Shown here: one piece after another, positions 8,042 to 20,366 of the stretch
How positions within the stretch are numbered: position 1 is the stretch's first letter
Layout of the letters: each line of letters begins with the position of its first letter
From: Candidatus Bathyarchaeia archaeon
GTDB taxonomy: Archaea; Thermoproteota; Bathyarchaeia; Bathyarchaeales; Bathycorpusculaceae
Assembly: GCA_049512935.1 (NCBI GenBank)
Contig: JBEKWR010000027.1
Coordinates: 1 to 26,273, forward strand
Reading direction: 5' to 3'
DNA: 26,273 nt
The notes under the pieces: model-generated
What the model was told of the DNA's origin: nothing
Databases searched by the model: none
The model's input: the letters and a program-made list of their open reading frames with translations, nothing else
Position numbers and translations under genes: made by a program

Positions 8042-9172
8042 TCACGGTATTATTTCGCAGCCGTTGTACTTGATAAAGTCAAAATCCGTCAGGCTTATCT
8101 TCCCGTTCTGGATCAGCCGCCGCATCCTTGGAATTTCAGCCTCAACATCCACCGCAAGCGCCGCCACCGTTTCGCACACTTTACCATACTGCTCGTCGCT
8201 CCACCGCTTAGTAATGTTGGCGTAAAGGCATCGTCCCCCGCAGACCCCCAAGATTTCGCAGTTCACGCATGGCGGCTGGTCAACAAAGATTCTTTTTATA
8301 GCCAGCGGGTCAGCGTCGGCGATGTTGCCCAAATAGTACTTTTTCATACCCCACATCGTCGGGCAAGGAATGATGTAGCCGTCAGTTTGAACCGCATAGT
8401 TCACCCAGCCGCCGCCGCAACGCATCAGACAATTTTTTTCCTCGTGCAAAAGCGAGTCGGCAACGCCCAGCAGAGGGTAAAGCTTCAAAACGAAGCCTTT
8501 CTCCTCCATCTGGTCAACCCAGAACCGCGCGAGCTTTTTCACTCCTGGAATGTAGCTGCTTTTTGTCCACTCCTCAAAGTTTCGTCTCTTGTAGTCGTTT
8601 CCCCAGAAACCCGCGTTCAACTGCCAATGCACCGAAGAGAAGGAAAATTCGTCGTTGTCAAGAAGCCAACGGACCTGCTTGTAGATGTCGGTATGCTCCA
8701 TAACCGTCATTCGGGCAATCAGTTCGCCTTTGAACCCGTTTCGCGTGATGAGTTTGAGGTTGTCGATGACTTTGCGAAACGTGCCTTTCCCACGGTAGTA
8801 GTCGGCTAACGCTTCTTCGCCGTCGATGGACACCAGGATCGTGTGGAAGCGGTTGACGTATTTCGGCTCCAACTTGTCAAGAAGCAGCCCGTTCGTCTGA
8901 ATCATGAAAAGCTTGGGTGAAACCTTATCCATGATCTGCTTGACCTTGTCGACGCCGAGGAGGGGTTCGCCGCCGTAAAAGGTCAAGACGCAATCAGGGT
9001 CTTTTCGGCAAAACCTGTCCAGCAACTCCACGTCATAGCTGATTTTTTTAGGAAGCGCGTATTCAACCTCTATATCGTCGCCGAAGTCCTCGTCGAAATC
9101 ATCCAAGGACTCGCCGAAACAGTAGCGACACTGCAAGTTACATTCGGTTGTCACTATCACGTGGAAGAACAT
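8042..9172 (-). CDS. Radical SAM/SPASM protein, AF0577/TIGR04084-like (putative peptide-modifying)
   Basis: CNLQCRYC, FYGGEPLL, QTNG, VSIDG, and SPASM cysteines RCGGG..IIPCP..CVNC..GVCGGRCLY..C. Confidence 0.88.
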   Translation of the reverse strand: MFFHVIVTTECNLQCRYCFGESLDDFDEDFGDDIEVEYALPKKISYDVELLDRFCRKDPDCVLTFYGGEPLLGVDKVKQIMDKVSPKLFMIQTNGLLLDKLEPKYVNRFHTILVSIDGEEALADYYRGKGTFRKVIDNLKLITRNGFKGELIARMTVMEHTDIYKQVRWLLDNDEFSFSSVHWQLNAGFWGNDYKRRNFEEWTKSSYIPGVKKLARFWVDQMEEKGFVLKLYPLLGVADSLLHEEKNCLMRCGGGWVNYAVQTDGYIIPCPTMWGMKKYYLGNIADADPLAIKRIFVDQPPCVNCEILGVCGGRCLYANITKRWSDEQYGKVCETVAALAVDVEAEIPRMRRLIQNGKISLTDFDFIKYNGCEIIP

Positions 9173-9196: not shown

Positions 9197-10534
9197 TTAA
9201 TAGTATTTTTCCGCGAGCTTGCTGGCTTTATCGTACCCTGGCGGCTTTTCAGTTTCTCCATCGTTTTCTTTGCCGCCTAACTCAACCTTCTCAGCACGTA
9301 TGATGTTTTTCTTGTCCGCTTCTTTTTTAGCCTGCTTAAGCGCCTTTTCAGCATAACTCTTCAGGTCTCTGTCCTTCAGGGTTTTTTCAGACAAAGTCTC
9401 TGGAGCATAAACTAAGGGTAAAACGGCCAAAAACAGGAAAAAACCCGTAAACGAAAACAGCGCGTACGGAGAAACACTCGAGGCCACGTAGTTACTCAAA
9501 GACAACTCTAAGAATTTTGAAATGAAAAAGGGCAATACTCCAATTGCGTAATATTTTTCACTTTTTGAATCATTACTCAGGTCGCCCCATATTAAAACAA
9601 CGAACATAACGTAGAAAATACCCCACGCTAAGCCATCTGCCACTGTGTAGAAATACCAACTGGCCATGTCTTTCGGATACAACCCTAAGACAGAGTAGCC
9701 GACTCCTATCAACACAAATCCTGCGATGGCAACGCGTTTTCGTCCCAGATAATCTATTAGAAAACCGCTAGCCACTGCGAATACTCCGATGATGGCTCCC
9801 TCCATCGTTTGTAAGATGTTGATTTGGTTGGCCCCAAGAACAGTATCCTGCACTGGAATACTGAGATAATTGACTAAACAAAACATAAGCCAAGGGATTA
9901 GGTACAGAATGAAAGATCTTTGCTTTAGAATTCCTGAAAATGAGACTTCCGTGGTTTTGGGTTTTTCAGAATTTTCAGTTGCGAATTTCTGAAAAGGCAA
10001 GGCTGCTAAACCGAATAGTCTCCAAACCACTAGAATTAGCACGGTGACCAAGATCCCACCGCTGTTGATTAAAGCCAGTAAGACGGTTCCGACGCATGTT
10101 AAAAATATTATTAAGCCACTGTACCGTCCGCGAACTTTAATTTCGGTTAGCTTTATGAAATTATTCATGCAACTTGGGATGCCTAAACCGAGGGATATTC
10201 CAAACAGCACCGCGACTAACATGGTAATGGGTATTTCAGCAAAATTCAAACTTAATAAAAACAGAGGGGATATTATTCCCAGAGCGACCCAGATTGCAAG
10301 AAAAGATTTTATTTGGATTTTTTTTACAAGCAGACTGCCTGCTACTAAAGAAATCATCACTGCAGAGAAATGAATAGCCCATATTTCCGTTTGGAGGAAG
10401 CCTGTTGCAACGCTGTTTATGGTGGTTTCTAAGAGTTTTGACGCTGAGAAATACCATATAAGGACATTGATAATTAAGAATGTGCTTTGTAGTATAAGCT
10501 TCCGATCATTTGGAAAATTTTTGGCTAAGTGCAT
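9197..10534 (-). CDS. MFS-fold membrane protein with a charged C-terminal tail
   Basis: About 12 hydrophobic helices, motif A (DYLGRKR) in the second half, PET motif after the last helix, and a Lys/Glu-rich tail. Confidence 0.88.
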   Translation of the reverse strand: MHLAKNFPNDRKLILQSTFLIINVLIWYFSASKLLETTINSVATGFLQTEIWAIHFSAVMISLVAGSLLVKKIQIKSFLAIWVALGIISPLFLLSLNFAEIPITMLVAVLFGISLGLGIPSCMNNFIKLTEIKVRGRYSGLIIFLTCVGTVLLALINSGGILVTVLILVVWRLFGLAALPFQKFATENSEKPKTTEVSFSGILKQRSFILYLIPWLMFCLVNYLSIPVQDTVLGANQINILQTMEGAIIGVFAVASGFLIDYLGRKRVAIAGFVLIGVGYSVLGLYPKDMASWYFYTVADGLAWGIFYVMFVVLIWGDLSNDSKSEKYYAIGVLPFFISKFLELSLSNYVASSVSPYALFSFTGFFLFLAVLPLVYAPETLSEKTLKDRDLKSYAEKALKQAKKEADKKNIIRAEKVELGGKENDGETEKPPGYDKASKLAEKYY

Positions 10535-10662
10535 GTTTTAACACTGTGTATTTTATCGTACGAGTTTCATGGAATAATCATTTTACCACTATTGACTTTC
10601 AGGTCAAGATAAGGTTTAAGGAGCGAAAAACTGTATTTTGGATAAGCAAACAAGCAGGCTAC

Positions 10663-10678
10663 CGCAAACCTTTTAAAG
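10663..10678 (+). promoter_or_regulatory. Archaeal BRE + TATA promoter for the short peptide gene
   Basis: CGCAAA-CC-TTTTAAAG. Predicts a transcription start near 10700, just before the GGAGG SD at 10702-10706. Confidence 0.6.
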
Positions 10679-10714
10679 AATATATGTTCAACATAAATAC
10701 AGGAGGAAAGGAGT

Positions 10715-10756
10715 ACGAAAAAGCCATTAAAGCCAATCAGAAGTTACTGGTGGTAA
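10715..10756 (+). CDS. Candidate Trp-terminated precursor peptide (M)KKPLKPIRSYWW with an ACG start
   Basis: ACG AAA AAG CCA TTA AAG CCA ATC AGA AGT TAC TGG TGG TAA. GGAGG lies 8 nt upstream, with a promoter before it and T-tracts after it. Adjacent to a ComQ-like enzyme. Confidence 0.65.
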   Translation, partial: TKKPLKPIRSYWW

Positions 10757-10766
10757 ATAAGAAACA

Positions 10767-10785
10767 TTTTCTTATCTTTTCTTTT
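10767..10785 (+). terminator. Archaeal oligo-T terminator after the peptide ORF
   Basis: TTTTCTTATCTTTTCTTTT starting 11 nt after the TAA. Confidence 0.5.
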
Positions 10786-10795
10786 ATATGTTTAG

Positions 10796-11788
10796 CTAGT
10801 TTGTTAAACCCTGTAAGGAAGACTCTAACAGGGTTACAAAATCGTGATTTTCATTAATCCATATTAAGTTTTGAATGGCGGTATTCACTGACAAACGCAT
10901 ATCGGCTGCGAGTTTTTGAACGGGCTTGGCGTTGGTAACTAAATCAAGTATTTCTTTTAGGTCGCCCTCGGTTGTTCTGGGCTTCTTGAGCAAACTCATC
11001 ACTTTTCTGGCTAATGTCTCGTCCTGGAAGGCGTACAAGATGGGAAGCGGTAAGCATTCATTCTTGAACCTATTGGTTAACTCTTCAAGCTCAAACATAT
11101 CAATAAACTCGTCTCTAACAGTCATCAAAACGCCCAACGTCTTCCCGAATTGCCTTAAACTTTCTATCTGTTCAACAGTGCCATTCCCAATTATGCCGCC
11201 CACCTGCGCTGACGCCGCCGCAATTGACACCTTCAATTCGATGAGCCCTAGATAATCTTCTGGTTTCAGATCCGAAATTCCCTTCAGGCAGGTCTCTTTT
11301 GCTTCGGCACTGCCAATATCAAAGAGCGCCTGCGTAATAAGCGTCTGAATCGCATGTTTTTTACCGCTTGGAAAAGCTTCGCACGCTTTGCTCAGCAAAT
11401 GCATGCCCTTAATCCAAAGCACGTCGCTGGCGATTATCGCGATTTCTTTTCCGAATTTTCCGAAAACTGTAGGTTTAGAATCTTTTGTTAACGAGATGTC
11501 AATTATGTCATCATGGATGTCTGCTGCTCCAGCAAGCAACGATAAAGACGCGCCAACCTCCACCGTTTCATTGGAATCTCCGCCTACAGCTTCACAAGCC
11601 ATTGAAAGAAGGGTAGGGTGGGAGGCGTCAAACCAAAACTCCATCATAAAATAACGTAATGCTTCTTGAAGCGTCTCAGACTTAAACTGCTCTTCCACAA
11701 CGGCTTGCCTGGCTAACTGCATCGCTTCTTTTGACCGTGCGATCAGGATGGCTTTTACTTGCTCCATTAATTTTTCGTCAGTTGACAT
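10796..11788 (-). CDS. Polyprenyl synthetase-family (class I isoprenoid fold) protein with degenerate motifs, ComQ-like
   Basis: FARM is intact (HDDIID). The second motif is RDEFID. GKRLRP is replaced by ASHP, RRG by KDS, and KT by KV. Confidence 0.88.
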   Translation of the reverse strand: MSTDEKLMEQVKAILIARSKEAMQLARQAVVEEQFKSETLQEALRYFMMEFWFDASHPTLLSMACEAVGGDSNETVEVGASLSLLAGAADIHDDIIDISLTKDSKPTVFGKFGKEIAIIASDVLWIKGMHLLSKACEAFPSGKKHAIQTLITQALFDIGSAEAKETCLKGISDLKPEDYLGLIELKVSIAAASAQVGGIIGNGTVEQIESLRQFGKTLGVLMTVRDEFIDMFELEELTNRFKNECLPLPILYAFQDETLARKVMSLLKKPRTTEGDLKEILDLVTNAKPVQKLAADMRLSVNTAIQNLIWINENHDFVTLLESSLQGLTN

Positions 11789-14044: not shown

Positions 14045-14087
14045 TGGTGCAGAAAGCGTGATTTGAACCCACGAACCTCTGCAGGAT
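14045..14087 (-). repeat. Degenerate direct-repeat copy of the tRNA-Leu 3' end (att-like)
   Basis: 35 of 43 positions identical, without gaps, to 14846-14888, including CCA and the T-arm. Confidence 0.85.
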
Positions 14088-14149
14088 GCGTTCAGTTTTC
14101 TTAGTTAGCAAAAGGGTAAAGCTCAAGAATTCTTTCGCCTAGGGACATT

Positions 14150-14557
14150 CTAGGTAGCTTCAAATATTATTTCCAGGTCTTGTTCAGCGAAGGTTATTTT
14201 GAAATGTGGAAATACGTCTGTTCTACCAAGCAGTCGTGGTACTTCGTCTGAGTCTGCGAATGCAGCTTTCACATCTAAAACTGTGCCGCCGATTTTCATT
14301 TTGATGGCATGAACGTAAGCAGGAATAAGGATTCTTCCAACCCCGATTATTGGGTGGTATTCACCTTGATTGAGGCTAAGCCCTAAAAATTCAGCGTCGC
14401 CTCTAGTGAAAAGCGATATATCTGCGCCGCTGTCAGCATAGACCTTAAAACCACGCCATTCTTTCTGTGTTGAGTAAAGAAAAATTGTTACTTTTGGCCT
14501 ATAAATTATCCTTGACCCAACAGATTCAGGTACATATCGGAAAACATACCGTGTCAA
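14150..14557 (-). CDS. Retropepsin-like aspartyl protease
   Basis: YRPKV, ADSGADIS catalytic motif and LLGRTDVF. TTG start overlaps the upstream stop (TTGA). Confidence 0.88.
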   Translation of the reverse strand: MTRYVFRYVPESVGSRIIYRPKVTIFLYSTQKEWRGFKVYADSGADISLFTRGDAEFLGLSLNQGEYHPIIGVGRILIPAYVHAIKMKIGGTVLDVKAAFADSDEVPRLLGRTDVFPHFKITFAEQDLEIIFEAT

Positions 14558-14766
14558 AGAATAAGTACGTCCGCTGCTTGAATGTAATCTATTACTATTT
14601 CTTCAGCTTTCGCTTCGGGGCATTTTCTTCGAGCCTTTCCAAACGCTTCGCCCGAGGTTTTTCCGTCCGCAATTATTTTGCCCTTGTATATCGCTACGTT
14701 TTTTCCATTATATTTTTTGTATTCCTCTGCTGTTATCTGAAGCGCTTCAAATGTTTTTTCAGGCAA
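14554..14766 (-). CDS. DUF5678-like small protein
   Basis: KYNGKNVAIYKGKIIADGKT..EA..KA..K.P pattern; translationally coupled to the aspartyl protease. Confidence 0.8.
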   Translation of the reverse strand: MPEKTFEALQITAEEYKKYNGKNVAIYKGKIIADGKTSGEAFGKARRKCPEAKAEEIVIDYIQAADVLIL

Positions 14767-14845
14767 TCCTTGACACCTGTTAGGTTAATGTAGATATCCA
14801 CGTATTAAATTTTCGCGATAAATAATTGTTATGTTGGCTTAGTTT

Positions 14846-14933
14846 TGGTGCAGGGGGTGGGATTCGAACCCACGAACCTCTAGAGGATAGGCTCCTGAAG
14901 CCTACGCCTTTGACCAGGCTCGGCGACCCCTGC
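14846..14933 (-). tRNA. tRNA-Leu(CAG), CCA encoded
   Basis: GCAGGGG...TAGGC-TT-CAG-GA-GCCTA, long variable arm CCTCTAGAGG, GTGGGTTCGAATCCCAC, CCCCTGC-A-CCA. Confidence 0.97.
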
Positions 14934-15179: not shown

Positions 15180-15365
15180 CAGGTATAAATTGGTTGATAC
15201 CTGAAAAAATCGGCGAAATGCCTGTTTTCCCGCTAGACAAGCACGTTTCTTTGAGCTTGATTTTTGCTCTAAATCAAAAAAGCAACATAAAACCAACCCC
15301 AAACTGGGGCAGCCTACCGAGGAAGGCGGTCTAGTATTTACGTTGGAATCCCATCACAAATATGG
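15180..15365 (+). repeat. 186-bp inverted repeat, copy 1
   Basis: Reverse complement of 20181-20366. The first 109 bp are identical; the next 77 bp align without gaps with 20 mismatches (manual count). Confidence 0.95.
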
Positions 15366-15464
15366 CTCCTCATCAATCTTCCAAAGCCCCCCCGAATTCT
15401 TGAGTCGCTGAGCAACTATGTTTAATTCCATGTTTTTTCGTTACGTACCCTTGAGGCTGATTGG

Positions 15465-16091
15465 ATGGTTGATGCTTGGCGGGAACCGTACCACGTCGTC
15501 ATCGAAGTTGAAAACAGGCAGTGCAAGATGGTTAAGAGGCTTGCCGCGCTCGGGTTCGAGCATCTCAAAGTTGTTGACGTGCGCAGTTCAAGCAGCGGGT
15601 CAGTTCGGCACCTGATGGACGTCGGCGAAGAACAAGCGCATAAGGTCCCAAGGGAACTCGCCGCCAAAGGACACGCGAAAGGAAAATCCACGGTGTGGCT
15701 TGAAAGCGAAGGCTGCGAAGTCTGCAACACCATCCTGAGCCACGACGCCTTCCTGGTCAGCGGCAAGGGCATGCAGGGCAACATCATCACCTACAGCTTC
15801 ATGGTGCCAACGTTCGAAGCGTACAAGGGCATAATCAGCGACCTGGAGGGGGCAGGTCACAGCGTAAACGTCCTCAAACTAGGCAAGTTCGAGCGGCAGA
15901 CAGACGTTTTGACGGAGAATCAGGAGAAGATCTTTTGGCTGGCGCTGAAAAGCGGCTTCTTCGATTACCCAAGGCAGGTTGGCATGGCTGAGCTCGCCGC
16001 CAAGCTCGGCATAAGCCCGGCAACGCTTTCTGAGGTTATCCGCAGGGGAACAAGAAGGCTGCTGCAGCACTACTTCAAAAAAGAACTCTAA
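15465..16091 (+). CDS. HTH_10 (bacterio-opsin activator-type) transcriptional regulator
   Basis: C-terminal LTENQEKI..LA...GFFDYPR...ELA.KLGIS.ATLSE.IRRG motif. Confidence 0.9.
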   Translation: MVDAWREPYHVVIEVENRQCKMVKRLAALGFEHLKVVDVRSSSSGSVRHLMDVGEEQAHKVPRELAAKGHAKGKSTVWLESEGCEVCNTILSHDAFLVSGKGMQGNIITYSFMVPTFEAYKGIISDLEGAGHSVNVLKLGKFERQTDVLTENQEKIFWLALKSGFFDYPRQVGMAELAAKLGISPATLSEVIRRGTRRLLQHYFKKEL

Positions 16092-16143
16092 ACAAACCCA
16101 AACCCGCCCCCGAGAAACCTCACTCGCCCATAACTGACAATAC

Positions 16144-16293
16144 AGTCAACATGGAGTCAACATTGAAAGTCGCAACCCGCCCATCCGAAAGTCGCAACCC
16201 TCAAACGCCTTCAAACCCCAACCCAAAAAAGCAATCAGAAACGCAAACTGCCAAGGCGGAAAGTCGCAACTTTCCTGTAGCAAAAGTCGCAAC
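16144..16293 (+). repeat. Short direct-repeat cluster: 4x AAAGTCGCAAC plus 2x AGTCAACAT
   Basis: AAAGTCGCAAC at 16166, 16188, 16260 and 16283; AGTCAACAT at 16144 and 16155. Confidence 0.85.
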
Positions 16294-16504
16294 TTAAAAA
16301 ACTAGACAAAAACCAACATGGAAAACCCGAAAACCGCTAAAAACCAAAAAACCCCGTGAATCGATAAACCATAAATATTATTAGATAGGTTGCGCCTAAA
16401 TTACATCAAACTAATAGAAAATTAGAATCTCATCATTGCGAGAAAACGCTCGCTTTATGTGATTAACAAATAATCAAAAATAAATCATCAGGAAGTGCAT
16501 ATTT

Positions 16505-17671
16505 ACGGGAGCATCCCAAACATTCACGATTAAGTACGTTGTACTTGCAAGATTCGAAATAGAAGGCGTCGTAGAAAAACCCGACGTAATAGGCGCAGTT
16601 TTCGGACAAACAGAAGGACTTTTCGGACCCGAACTCGACCTAAGAGAACTACAAAAAACAGGACGCATAGGCAGAATAGAAATCGACCTACACTCAAAAA
16701 ACGACCACACCACAGGCTCAATAACCATCCCCACAAGCCTAGACCGCGTCTCAACAGCACTAATAGCCGCAAGCATAGAAAGCATCAACCGAGTCGGACC
16801 ATGCCAAGCCAAAGTCAGCCTCGAAAAAATCGAAGACATACGCGAAGCACGCCGAAAAATCATAATCGACCGAGCCAAAGAAATCCTCCATAAATGGAAC
16901 ATCGAATCCATGCCAAGCGTCGAAGACGTCTACAAAGAAATCAGCGACACCATGAAAGTCGGCAAAGTCGAAAAATACGGCCCAGAAGACCTACCAGCAG
17001 GACCAGGACTAGACGCAGCAAAAGAAATCATAGTCGTAGAAGGACGAGCAGACATAATTAACCTGATGCGCTGCGGAATCTTCAACACCGTCGCGTTGGA
17101 AGGCGCAAAGGTTCCAGAGTCAATAAAGAAGCTGACAAAAGAAAAAATAGCCACTGCACTTCTTGACGGAGACCGAGGAGGCGACCTAATACTGAAAGAG
17201 CTGCTTCAGGTCACAAGCATAAAATTCGTCGGGCGCGCCCCAAGAGGAAAAGAAATCGAAGAATGCAACTGCAAAGAAGTCAACGAAGCAATAGAAAACA
17301 AAGTTCCAATTTCAGAAGTTTCAGGCAAACCGCAACCGCCGCCTAAAAAGATTCCTGAACACGTCAAAGTTGAAGTGCCAGAACCAGTGGGTCAAGCAGC
17401 TAAAGCCTTGCTGGGCACGCTTGAAGCCGTTCTGCTGAACGAGAAGCTCGAGTTAGTTGAGCGCTTGCCAGTCAGCCAGTTAGCCGAGAAACTTCAGCAA
17501 GTAACAGGCGTTGACACCGTGGTCTTCGACGGCATCATAACGCAGAGAATTGTCGACATCGCAGGAGAGAAAAACATCAGGCGCATAGTTGCGTCCCGAA
17601 TCTCCGAAGCCGTGAAGCCAGCTTTGAACGTTGAACTGGTAACTTTCCAAGACGCCGTTCCCCAAGCCTAA
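16505..17671 (+). CDS. dnaG: Archaeal DnaG (TOPRIM, exosome-associated), full length with a probable ACG start
   Basis: The frame is open upstream of the ORF-track ATG at 16910 and encodes the conserved N-terminus KYVVLARFEIEGVVEKPDVIGAVFGQTEGL...LRELQKTGRIGRI. TOPRIM motifs VVEGRAD and DGDRGG are present. Confidence 0.93.
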   Translation, partial: TGASQTFTIKYVVLARFEIEGVVEKPDVIGAVFGQTEGLFGPELDLRELQKTGRIGRIEIDLHSKNDHTTGSITIPTSLDRVSTALIAASIESINRVGPCQAKVSLEKIEDIREARRKIIIDRAKEILHKWNIESMPSVEDVYKEISDTMKVGKVEKYGPEDLPAGPGLDAAKEIIVVEGRADIINLMRCGIFNTVALEGAKVPESIKKLTKEKIATALLDGDRGGDLILKELLQVTSIKFVGRAPRGKEIEECNCKEVNEAIENKVPISEVSGKPQPPPKKIPEHVKVEVPEPVGQAAKALLGTLEAVLLNEKLELVERLPVSQLAEKLQQVTGVDTVVFDGIITQRIVDIAGEKNIRRIVASRISEAVKPALNVELVTFQDAVPQA

Positions 17672-20049: not shown

Positions 20050-20180
20050 CGCAAACGCCATTACAAGAAAGAGCATTTTAATCCTTTAAACTTTCAACGT
20101 GACGGGCAAGCTGACGTTTGAGCACGTTGCGTTTTTGATTCGTGAAAGAGTTACTTTTAAGAAGCGGCTGACGAGTTGAC

Positions 20181-20366
20181 CCATATTTGTGATTGTTTTT
20201 TGATGTAAATAATAGACCCTCTCCCACGGTAGGCTGTTCCAGCTTGGGGCGTTTTTCATGTTGCTTTTTTGATTTAGAGCAAAAATCAAGCTCAAAGAAA
20301 CGTGCTTGTCTAGCGGGAAAACAGGCATTTCGCCGATTTTTTCAGGTATCAACCAATTTATACCTG
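20181..20366 (-). repeat. 186-bp inverted repeat, copy 2
   Basis: Reverse complement of 15180-15365. Confidence 0.95.

Follow-up and report, generated by a model that had tools for sequence, protein, structure and literature searches.

Members of a Bathyarchaeial protein family that databases name GGPP synthase are probably peptide prenyltransferases that work like ComQ, PalQ and StheQ, an assessment that takes two possible acceptor residues, Trp and Arg, together. The member described here lies in a 26,273-nt stretch of a Candidatus Bathyarchaeia archaeon contig, hereafter the window, and is linked to a peptide gene of only 13 codons. The family would be an archaeal counterpart to the bacterial peptide prenyltransferases. 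Its minimal precursor escapes gene callers, and its hosts are widespread, mostly uncultured sediment archaea. No description of a Bathyarchaeial prenylated-peptide system or of an archaeal prenyl peptide pheromone was found in the literature searched, which lay mostly outside subscription journals. Prenylated ribosomal peptides in archaea, possibly acting as density signals, and non-Trp prenylation by the IDS fold are thereby opened to test.

The enzyme and its altered motifs

The enzyme gene and its motif regions are as follows.

10796..11788, minus strand: trans-IDS-fold prenyltransferase gene, 330 aa, ATG start (motifs, domain match and model)
11615..11635, minus strand: remodelled IBM-1, W52-F-D54-A-S-H57-P58 for GKRxRP (alignment to 1wy0 and 82-row alignment)
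11483..11521, minus strand: D90, the FARM (D93, D94, D97) and K102 (82-row alignment)
11057..11125, minus strand: SARM region M222-D230 (T223 for Gln; DEFID) and a shortened loop with E236, R240 and E244 (alignments)

The protein carries a Pfam polyprenyl_synt domain (75 bits) and scores far under the cut-offs of all NCBIfam IDS equivalogs, the best being IdsA at 101 versus 468 bits. Its AlphaFold2 model (pLDDT 94, alignment depth 45 sequences) has the all-helical IDS fold and best matches archaeal GGPP synthases (1wy0, TM 0.85; G. acetivorans 5jfq, Z 31.3, rmsd 2.3, 302 aligned). An archaeal short-chain IDS/GGPP synthase was also the top sequence match in a profile search (E 1e-34). Ord1 was the second-best PDB sequence match, at 23-24% identity, and the inactive small subunits 3kra_B and 5xn6_C appeared low among the PDB matches. 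Judged by best hits, which give no root, the enzyme likely descends from an archaeal GGPP synthase. Motif registers were set by alignment to P. horikoshii GGPPS 1wy0, and roles of pocket residues were assigned from alignments.

A protein search returned 1662 matches, 298 of them representatives at E <=1e-30, and both figures may include canonical synthases. Scanning of genomes confirmed 127 relatives, of which the best 80, together with the window, make up the 81 loci to which all locus counts below refer, and their 82 proteins include tandem copies. A distant set of 100 rows combined 99 full-length sequences from 150 listed representatives with the window protein. Of the best 80 loci, 78 are labelled Bathyarchaeia; the other two are contigs of 3.5-5 kb that are probably misbinned. 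Atlas clusters of the family are 73-88% archaeal, and the plasmid collection held no match to the enzyme. Also present are versions about 500 aa long in which part of the enzyme is duplicated at the N-terminus (P0064, P0077, P0099 and P0121), and a 557-aa version with an unassigned extension (L017:9314-10987).

The expressions of PMC10108439 Table 1 for IBM-1 to -4, IBM-6 and the SARM were run on the 82 proteins. The window protein matches no strict IPP-motif expression, and none of the 82 matches those for IBM-1, IBM-2, IBM-4, the C-terminal IBM-6 or the SARM; the strict IBM-3 pattern occurs in two, in neither case behind the FARM. Since, these displaced hits aside, none of the 82 and at most one of the 100 distant rows matches any strict expression, the losses are a trait of a Bathyarchaeial family and not of a decayed copy. 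The initial annotation had held that the IPP-binding site was lost, and every published motif tested does fail in the window protein and its 81 aligned relatives. As that annotation also stated, GGKRxRP is altered, with F53-D54-A55-S56-H57-P58 in the GKRxRP register, and the RRG after the FARM has given way to DDIIDISLTKDSKPT, with RR[GN] behind the FARM in none of the 82. In IBM-1, W52 is present in 71 of the 82 proteins, Asp or Asn at position 54 in 75 and H57 in 78; among the 100 distant rows, 44 have Arg at position 57, which speaks against total loss. Not all of the claimed losses are complete. The first Arg of RR is replaced by an invariant Lys (K102, 82/82), and the reported change of KT to KV is correct (K186-V187) but leaves the Lys itself in place (K186, 81/82). 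Changes missed earlier are those in IBM-2, where S83 and A86 occupy the Glu and His positions, the loss of the pre-SARM Gln, and that of the C-terminal Arg, absent from all 82 proteins.

The FARM was rightly described as intact: its DDxxD acids D93, D94 and D97 are invariant, as are S99, K102, T107, E165, E236, R240, P247 and P249 (all 82/82), and HDDxxD is present in 81 of the 82. Near-invariant are K186, D230 and E244 (the latter two 79/82). For the SARM, the sequence R225-D226-E227-F228-I229-D230 was read correctly, but the change is a mild one (DExxD), and an argument from it has little force: an Arg ahead of DD occurs in the canonical motif, and the protein keeps D-E-x-x-D. Three SARM acids remain in the window protein; across the family the first SARM Asp is D in 43, E in 24 and N in 10 of 82. 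A likeness to ComQ by way of a 'degenerate SARM' therefore carries little weight, DExxD not being the NDxxx pseudo-SARM and the Trp-recognising Gln being missing: the pre-SARM position is T223 here, and Gln is not among its common states in the 82 rows. New in the family, besides this loss, are D/N54 and H57, which occupy the Lys and Arg positions of IBM-1, and an Asp three residues upstream of the FARM (D90, 81/82), the same offset as D82 of StheQ.

In FPPS structures, contacts to the donor diphosphate come from the Lys of the GK loop, the Lys of KT and the first Arg behind the FARM. PMC10108439 lists the same positions among IPP contacts. In an alignment to HepT, R240 falls next to the GK-loop Lys, and E244 coincides with the Asp that follows. 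From these alignments, R240 and K102 could partly compensate for lost IPP contacts, and invariant R240, near-invariant R225 and H57 are candidate compensating basic residues.

The peptide gene and its surroundings

The enzyme-MFS gap, mostly 140-400 nt across loci, holds a short ORF on the strand opposite both genes. This and the neighbouring features are as follows.

10715..10756, plus strand: 13-codon precursor peptide gene, ACG start, unannotated, TKKPLKPIRSYWW (sequence, motif rule, coding signature)
10702..10713, plus strand: Shine-Dalgarno-like GGAGG/GGAG before the ACG (sequence, sister-locus alignment)
10685..10693, no strand assigned: palindrome TGTTCAACA, a candidate operator between the TATA box and the inferred transcription start (recurrence at promoters)
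10663..10678, plus strand: BRE (CGCAAAC) and TATA box (TTTTAAAG) of the peptide gene (sequence, spacing conserved across loci)
9197..10534, minus strand: MFS transporter gene, divergent from the peptide gene; candidate exporter (domain match, neighbourhood)
8042..9172, minus strand: TIGR04084 radical SAM/SPASM protein gene, directly behind the MFS gene (304 bits, cut-off 225)

TKKPLKPIRSYWW has a basic N-terminus, P-I-R and a C-terminal WW, its first residue being Met if ACG initiates. Under a fixed rule, a motif ORF was found behind 69 of 81 enzyme genes (opposite strand, 1), compared with a mean of 0.32 and a maximum of 3 in shuffles (60 rounds) and with 8 of 814 windows placed behind other genes. 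Because the rule comes from these same loci, the count is post hoc; the controls were run under the identical rule. Curation gave 80 peptides, 78 of them unique, of 12-21 aa and with net charges of +3 to +9. The set omits L056, which lies at a contig end, the second L004 enzyme, where the candidate ORF ends after four codons in a frameshift-rich assembly, and L031, whose matching peptide was recognised only by eye. Trp is last or penultimate in 61 of the 78 unique peptides (mean 13, maximum 23 in 2000 permutations); it is penultimate in 37, last in 24, present anywhere in 64 and absent from 14. P-[IVMFLA]-R occurs in 68 of 78 (mean 5.5, maximum 14 in 2000 permutations), P-x-K in only one. All six Arg codons are used at the conserved Arg, a residue whose '78/78' occurrence holds by construction, Arg being the alignment anchor. 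In 24 of 25 disjoint gene pairs (one was skipped for unequal length), differences at codon positions 1/2/3 number 73/50/123, and 70 of 166 changed codons are synonymous (42%) versus 21% for random single changes.

The peptide also moves with its enzyme. In five rearranged loci, with the order protease-peptide-MFS divergent from the enzyme, the peptide gene relocates with the MFS gene across the enzyme gene and the peptide still ends in WW, now at a distance of 12-14 residues from the Arg; in L009, enzyme, MFS and peptide genes are each present twice, the radical SAM gene once. Peptide types track the enzyme tree (a quick, unrooted IQ-TREE without ComQ or a canonical outgroup, whose group table leaves out unlabelled rows). 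The 14 Trp-less peptides all belong to one 17-row clade, with three changes on the tree, and enzymes 75-78% identical pair with Trp-ending versus Ile/Val-ending peptides (L071 versus L075 and L077). The peptides of L064, L076 and L079 contain no Trp, Tyr, Ser or Thr beyond the Arg. The residue at FARM -4 is F/L in 13 of 14 Trp-less systems versus A/G in 59 of 65 Trp systems; this covariation rests on one clade and therefore does not demonstrate co-evolution. From these sequence comparisons, the TKKPLKPIRSYWW ORF likely encodes the enzyme's acceptor.

Other candidates for the gap were set aside. An overlapping 115-aa ORF (10510-10857, plus strand) has an internal ATG that falls inside the palindrome and is not conserved in sister loci, and a second motif ORF (L036:9752-9793) lies inside leuS and was taken as chance. 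No known structured RNA was found in the gap, Rfam yielding just three tRNAs.

An MFS gene is present in 79 of 81 loci (best 80 of 127 plus the window), is downstream of 75 of 82 enzymes, and relocates and duplicates together with the enzyme and peptide genes. The TIGR04084 radical SAM gene, whose product is a putative peptide modifier, occurs in 63 of 81 loci and directly follows the MFS gene in 60 of the 63. It is a frequent, dispensable neighbour: the idea of an obligatory tailoring enzyme finds no support, given its absence from 18 of 81 loci (some at contig ends), including the five rearranged WW loci, and given the tandem loci, which have two enzymes and one radical SAM gene. Nothing relevant on TIGR04084 appeared among the literature matches listed. 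leuS is found in 30 of 81 loci and kinase-like ORFs in 14, at variable positions; the partners that do keep a fixed place are the genes for the peptide and the MFS protein. In L045 and L065, a GNAT acetyltransferase-like gene comes after the MFS gene. In L042, L053, L061, L078 and L080, a trypsin-family protease gene, whose product has a signal-peptide-like N-terminus, overlaps or abuts the peptide-gene start. Trypsin-type cleavage after Arg goes with Asp189 at S1; cutting after the conserved Arg by the neighbouring protease in these five loci was rejected, S1 being Gly, not Asp, in the four of them where the motif could be parsed.

The BRE and TATA box are named after the established elements of archaeal promoters. 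TGT-N3-ACA precedes 68 of 80 peptide genes versus 26 of 816 other genes, along with 1 of 81 enzyme genes and 18 of 56 PadR genes. A slightly relaxed palindrome is found in 27 of 29 PadR promoter regions versus 22 of 218 other gaps, the windows compared being of unequal length. PadR genes are present in 34 of 81 loci, with none inside the window. The placement of the palindrome between TATA box and start would suit a repressor, and PadR proteins bind hydrophobic ligands. A second palindrome, upstream of the TATA box, is seen in L058, L062-L064, L071, L072, L074, L075, L077 and L079, loci of the clade that holds the Trp-less peptides.

The peptide frame contains no ATG, GTG or TTG, and a TAA stands six codons upstream of the ACG, which aligns with ATG in sister loci such as L003. 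Among 80 peptide genes, ATG starts number 60, TTG 9, ACG 8 and GTG 3; the ACG starts fall in three separate parts of the tree and need at least five changes. A second case is dnaG (16505-17671, plus strand), whose frame opens with ACG at 16505 behind a purine-rich, Shine-Dalgarno-like site. No ATG, GTG or TTG covers its N-terminal 135 residues, the first ATG lying after them, and read from the ACG the protein gives a full NCBIfam match (459 versus a cut-off of 300 bits). Of 120 DnaG homologues, compared as proteins so that the ACG itself is shown for the window's dnaG only, 81 could be parsed at the start position, with Met exactly there in 17, Thr in 63 and one truncated; upstream extensions of the 63 are inconsistent. 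Among the other 39, 38 are called from later starts and one has Met at the same site. These alignments suggest ACG initiation across many Bathyarchaeia, and dnaG lends independent support to the ACG start of the peptide gene. Taken together, the two genes point to a non-standard initiation codon in the lineage; a literature search on ACG starts in archaea gave nothing relevant among the matches listed.

Several further features of the window were recorded. Positions 16001-17000, the dnaG region, have an AT skew of +0.43, the coding strand being very T-poor. A 189-nt inverted repeat pair (15180-15368 and 20178-20366; 89% complementary, no Rfam match) flanks genes for an HTH_10 regulator, dnaG and a family B polymerase, and is possibly a small mobile or regulatory repeat. 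At 14045-14888, the end of tRNA-Leu recurs 801 nt from the tRNA as a decayed 43-nt copy (81%), and the two enclose a DUF5678 gene and a retropepsin-like protease gene, an arrangement that looks like an integration scar.

Proposed reaction and rival explanations

The initial annotation had inferred prenyl transfer to a non-IPP acceptor and an erroneous GGPPS label. Family-wide loss of IPP motifs, the retained donor side and the co-travelling short peptide gene argue for both. In the reaction we propose, an allylic diphosphate and Mg2+ would be bound through the FARM, K102, K186, E165, D230, R240 and E244, and the small A88 and A89 (-5/-4 before the FARM) suggest a long donor such as FPP or GGPP. 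The basic 13-mer would dock in the former IPP site, where acidic or neutral residues (D54, D90, E162) have replaced basic ones, with P-I-R as the recognition element. The carbocation would then alkylate Trp at the final or next-to-final position, as happens with ComQ, StheQ and PalQ. In the weakest steps of the scheme, the lipopeptide would exit through the MFS transporter and a PadR-type regulator at the palindrome would control peptide output; such control suggests a feedback or cell-density signal.

We give the C-terminal Trp, last or penultimate, an even chance of being the acceptor. The terminal WW here, its retention in rearranged loci when the Arg moves away, and the precedent of the characterised trans-IDS-like peptide prenyltransferases, which all use Trp, argue for it; the missing pre-SARM Gln, the 14 of 78 peptides without Trp and the similar enzymes serving both peptide types argue against it. 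For these reasons we considered a rival in which the enzyme prenylates the Arg guanidine of P-hydrophobic-R (or the peptide terminus) and the C-terminal aromatics bind membrane or receptor. The near-exclusive use of Arg over Lys behind the hydrophobic residue, through all six codons, is consistent with it, as are the three peptides with no Trp, Tyr, Ser or Thr after the Arg, and a pocket that has lost Gln and gained acidic D90, D/N54 and E162 would suit a cation. Cyanobactin enzymes of a different fold are known to prenylate Arg (PMC10853753), but no trans-IDS enzyme is reported to do so in PMC13290415; if true here, it would be a reaction not reported for this fold. The universality of the Arg follows from its use as anchor, the Trp-less peptides of a single clade with bulkier FARM -4 may be a derived variant, and the rearranged clade keeps WW far from the Arg. 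On balance the Arg reading is unlikely, though worth keeping in view, and both chemistries may occur within the family.

Readings without a modified peptide fare worse. An IDS-derived terpene synthase or small-molecule prenyltransferase, whose product the MFS protein would export while the peptide, instead of being the substrate, would act as a co-regulated signal or regulator, is improbable. IPP-motif loss including Lys-to-Asp in IBM-1 does mark insect IDS-type terpene synthases (PMC10108439), Ord1 ranks second among the PDB sequence matches, and 5 of 81 loci (L051, L055, L065, L066 and L076) have a geranylgeranyl-reductase-family gene within or next to the module, although such genes would also fit reduction of an attached chain. 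Yet every enzyme copy retains its own peptide through duplication and rearrangement, with types following the enzyme tree; the pocket gains are mostly acidic, not aromatic, W52 apart; and Tyr215/Gln216 of Ord1 are not conserved (M222/T223). Poorer still are the prospects of a non-catalytic peptide- or isoprenoid-binding protein, whether sensor or subunit of a heteromeric synthase. The variable first SARM Asp (43/82) and the inactive small subunits among the PDB matches, low as they rank, would agree with it; invariance of the FARM, K102, E165, E236 and R240 stands against it, as does the finding that no canonical IDS partner clusters with the family among ORFs called in the 81 loci. Moreover, StheQ is functional with metal at the FARM alone (bioRxiv 10.64898/2026.08.29.745113). 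That the protein is an ordinary GGPP or polyprenyl diphosphate synthase with compensating basic residues is scarcely credible. Its database names, its closest solved relatives and the conserved basic H57, R225 and R240 speak for this annotation; the failed motif expressions and the low equivalog score speak against it. In addition, two different family members lie on separate contigs in five assemblies, tandem copies occur at two loci, and the frequent neighbour clusters of the 81 loci comprise peptide and MFS genes with no mevalonate or ether-lipid gene. Genes of this family should not be counted as membrane-lipid genes.

A bolder variant of the peptide prenyltransferase reading, which we think of as a long shot, is a Bathyarchaeial autoinducer circuit of archaeal origin. 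A GGPPS offshoot would prenylate the Arg guanidine of the 12-21-residue peptide, the MFS protein would export it, PadR repressors would read it at the palindrome, ACG, TTG and GTG starts would throttle basal output, and the variable C-termini would be signal dialects.

Comparison with known systems

PMC13290415 describes trans-IDS-like peptide prenyltransferases in bacteria only, all acting on Trp. With ComQ/ComX of Bacillus and StheQ/StheX of Sphaerobacter, the present system shares the trans-IDS fold, the intact FARM and a neighbouring short gene whose product carries Trp at its C-terminal end or close to it. The Trp modified by StheQ is the second one counted from the C-terminus, and an Asp that lines the StheQ acceptor pocket, D82 (bioRxiv 10.64898/2026.08.29.745113), has D90 at the corresponding offset here. 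By the same paper, the ComQ family (IPR033965) is defined by the pseudo-SARM NDxxx, whereas the sequence here is DExxD, with Asn first in 10 of 82, and the pre-SARM Gln is absent. This Gln is tied to Trp/indole recognition in ComQ-like enzymes, PalQ and Ord1 (PMC13290415, PMC10853753 and PMC12510300). The precursor is 12-21 aa long and convergent with the enzyme gene, compared with 69 aa and a downstream tandem gene for StheX. MFS and PadR genes take the place of the ComP/ComA pair, the host is an archaeon, and the kinase and response-regulator arrangement of comQXPA was not seen in the 81 loci. Among the protein's NCBIfam and Pfam matches, none was to a model named ComQ.

PalQ/PalX of Paenibacillus alvei (PMC10853753) likewise combines an IDS-superfamily enzyme misannotated as isoprenoid synthase with a core that has basic residues ahead of a C-terminal Trp. 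The Trp that PalQ modifies must be terminal, and PalQ has the conserved Q197. In the present system the Gln is absent, and Trp more often precedes the final residue than occupies that position, or is missing altogether. The PalX cluster has an NHLP leader and a histidine kinase, and no NHLP domain is found here. An adjacent short Trp-bearing precursor gene, as with ComQ, StheQ, PalQ and ChrPC, is thus present, but the Gln is not. Because the pseudo-SARM, the Gln and the QXPA context all fail, we do not file the enzyme in the ComQ or PalQ families.

Ord1/XiaM (PDB 9V4G; PMC12510300) has a similarly altered IBM-1 and an Arg before the SARM acids, but it retains RR behind the FARM as well as the catalytic Gln216/Asp219, and its substrate is free indole; its acceptor-site residues Tyr215, Gln216 and Asp219 correspond to M222, T223 and D226 here. 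The insect IDS-type terpene synthases of PMC10108439 share the disrupted IBMs, including Lys-to-Asp in IBM-1, but are FPPS- or GGPPS-derived and eukaryotic, with no acceptor and no peptide partner. The best match in both sequence and structure is to archaeal short-chain IDS/GGPPS (1wy0, 5jfq), from which the present enzyme differs in the loss of the tested IPP-binding motifs, a shortened post-SARM loop and a linked peptide gene.
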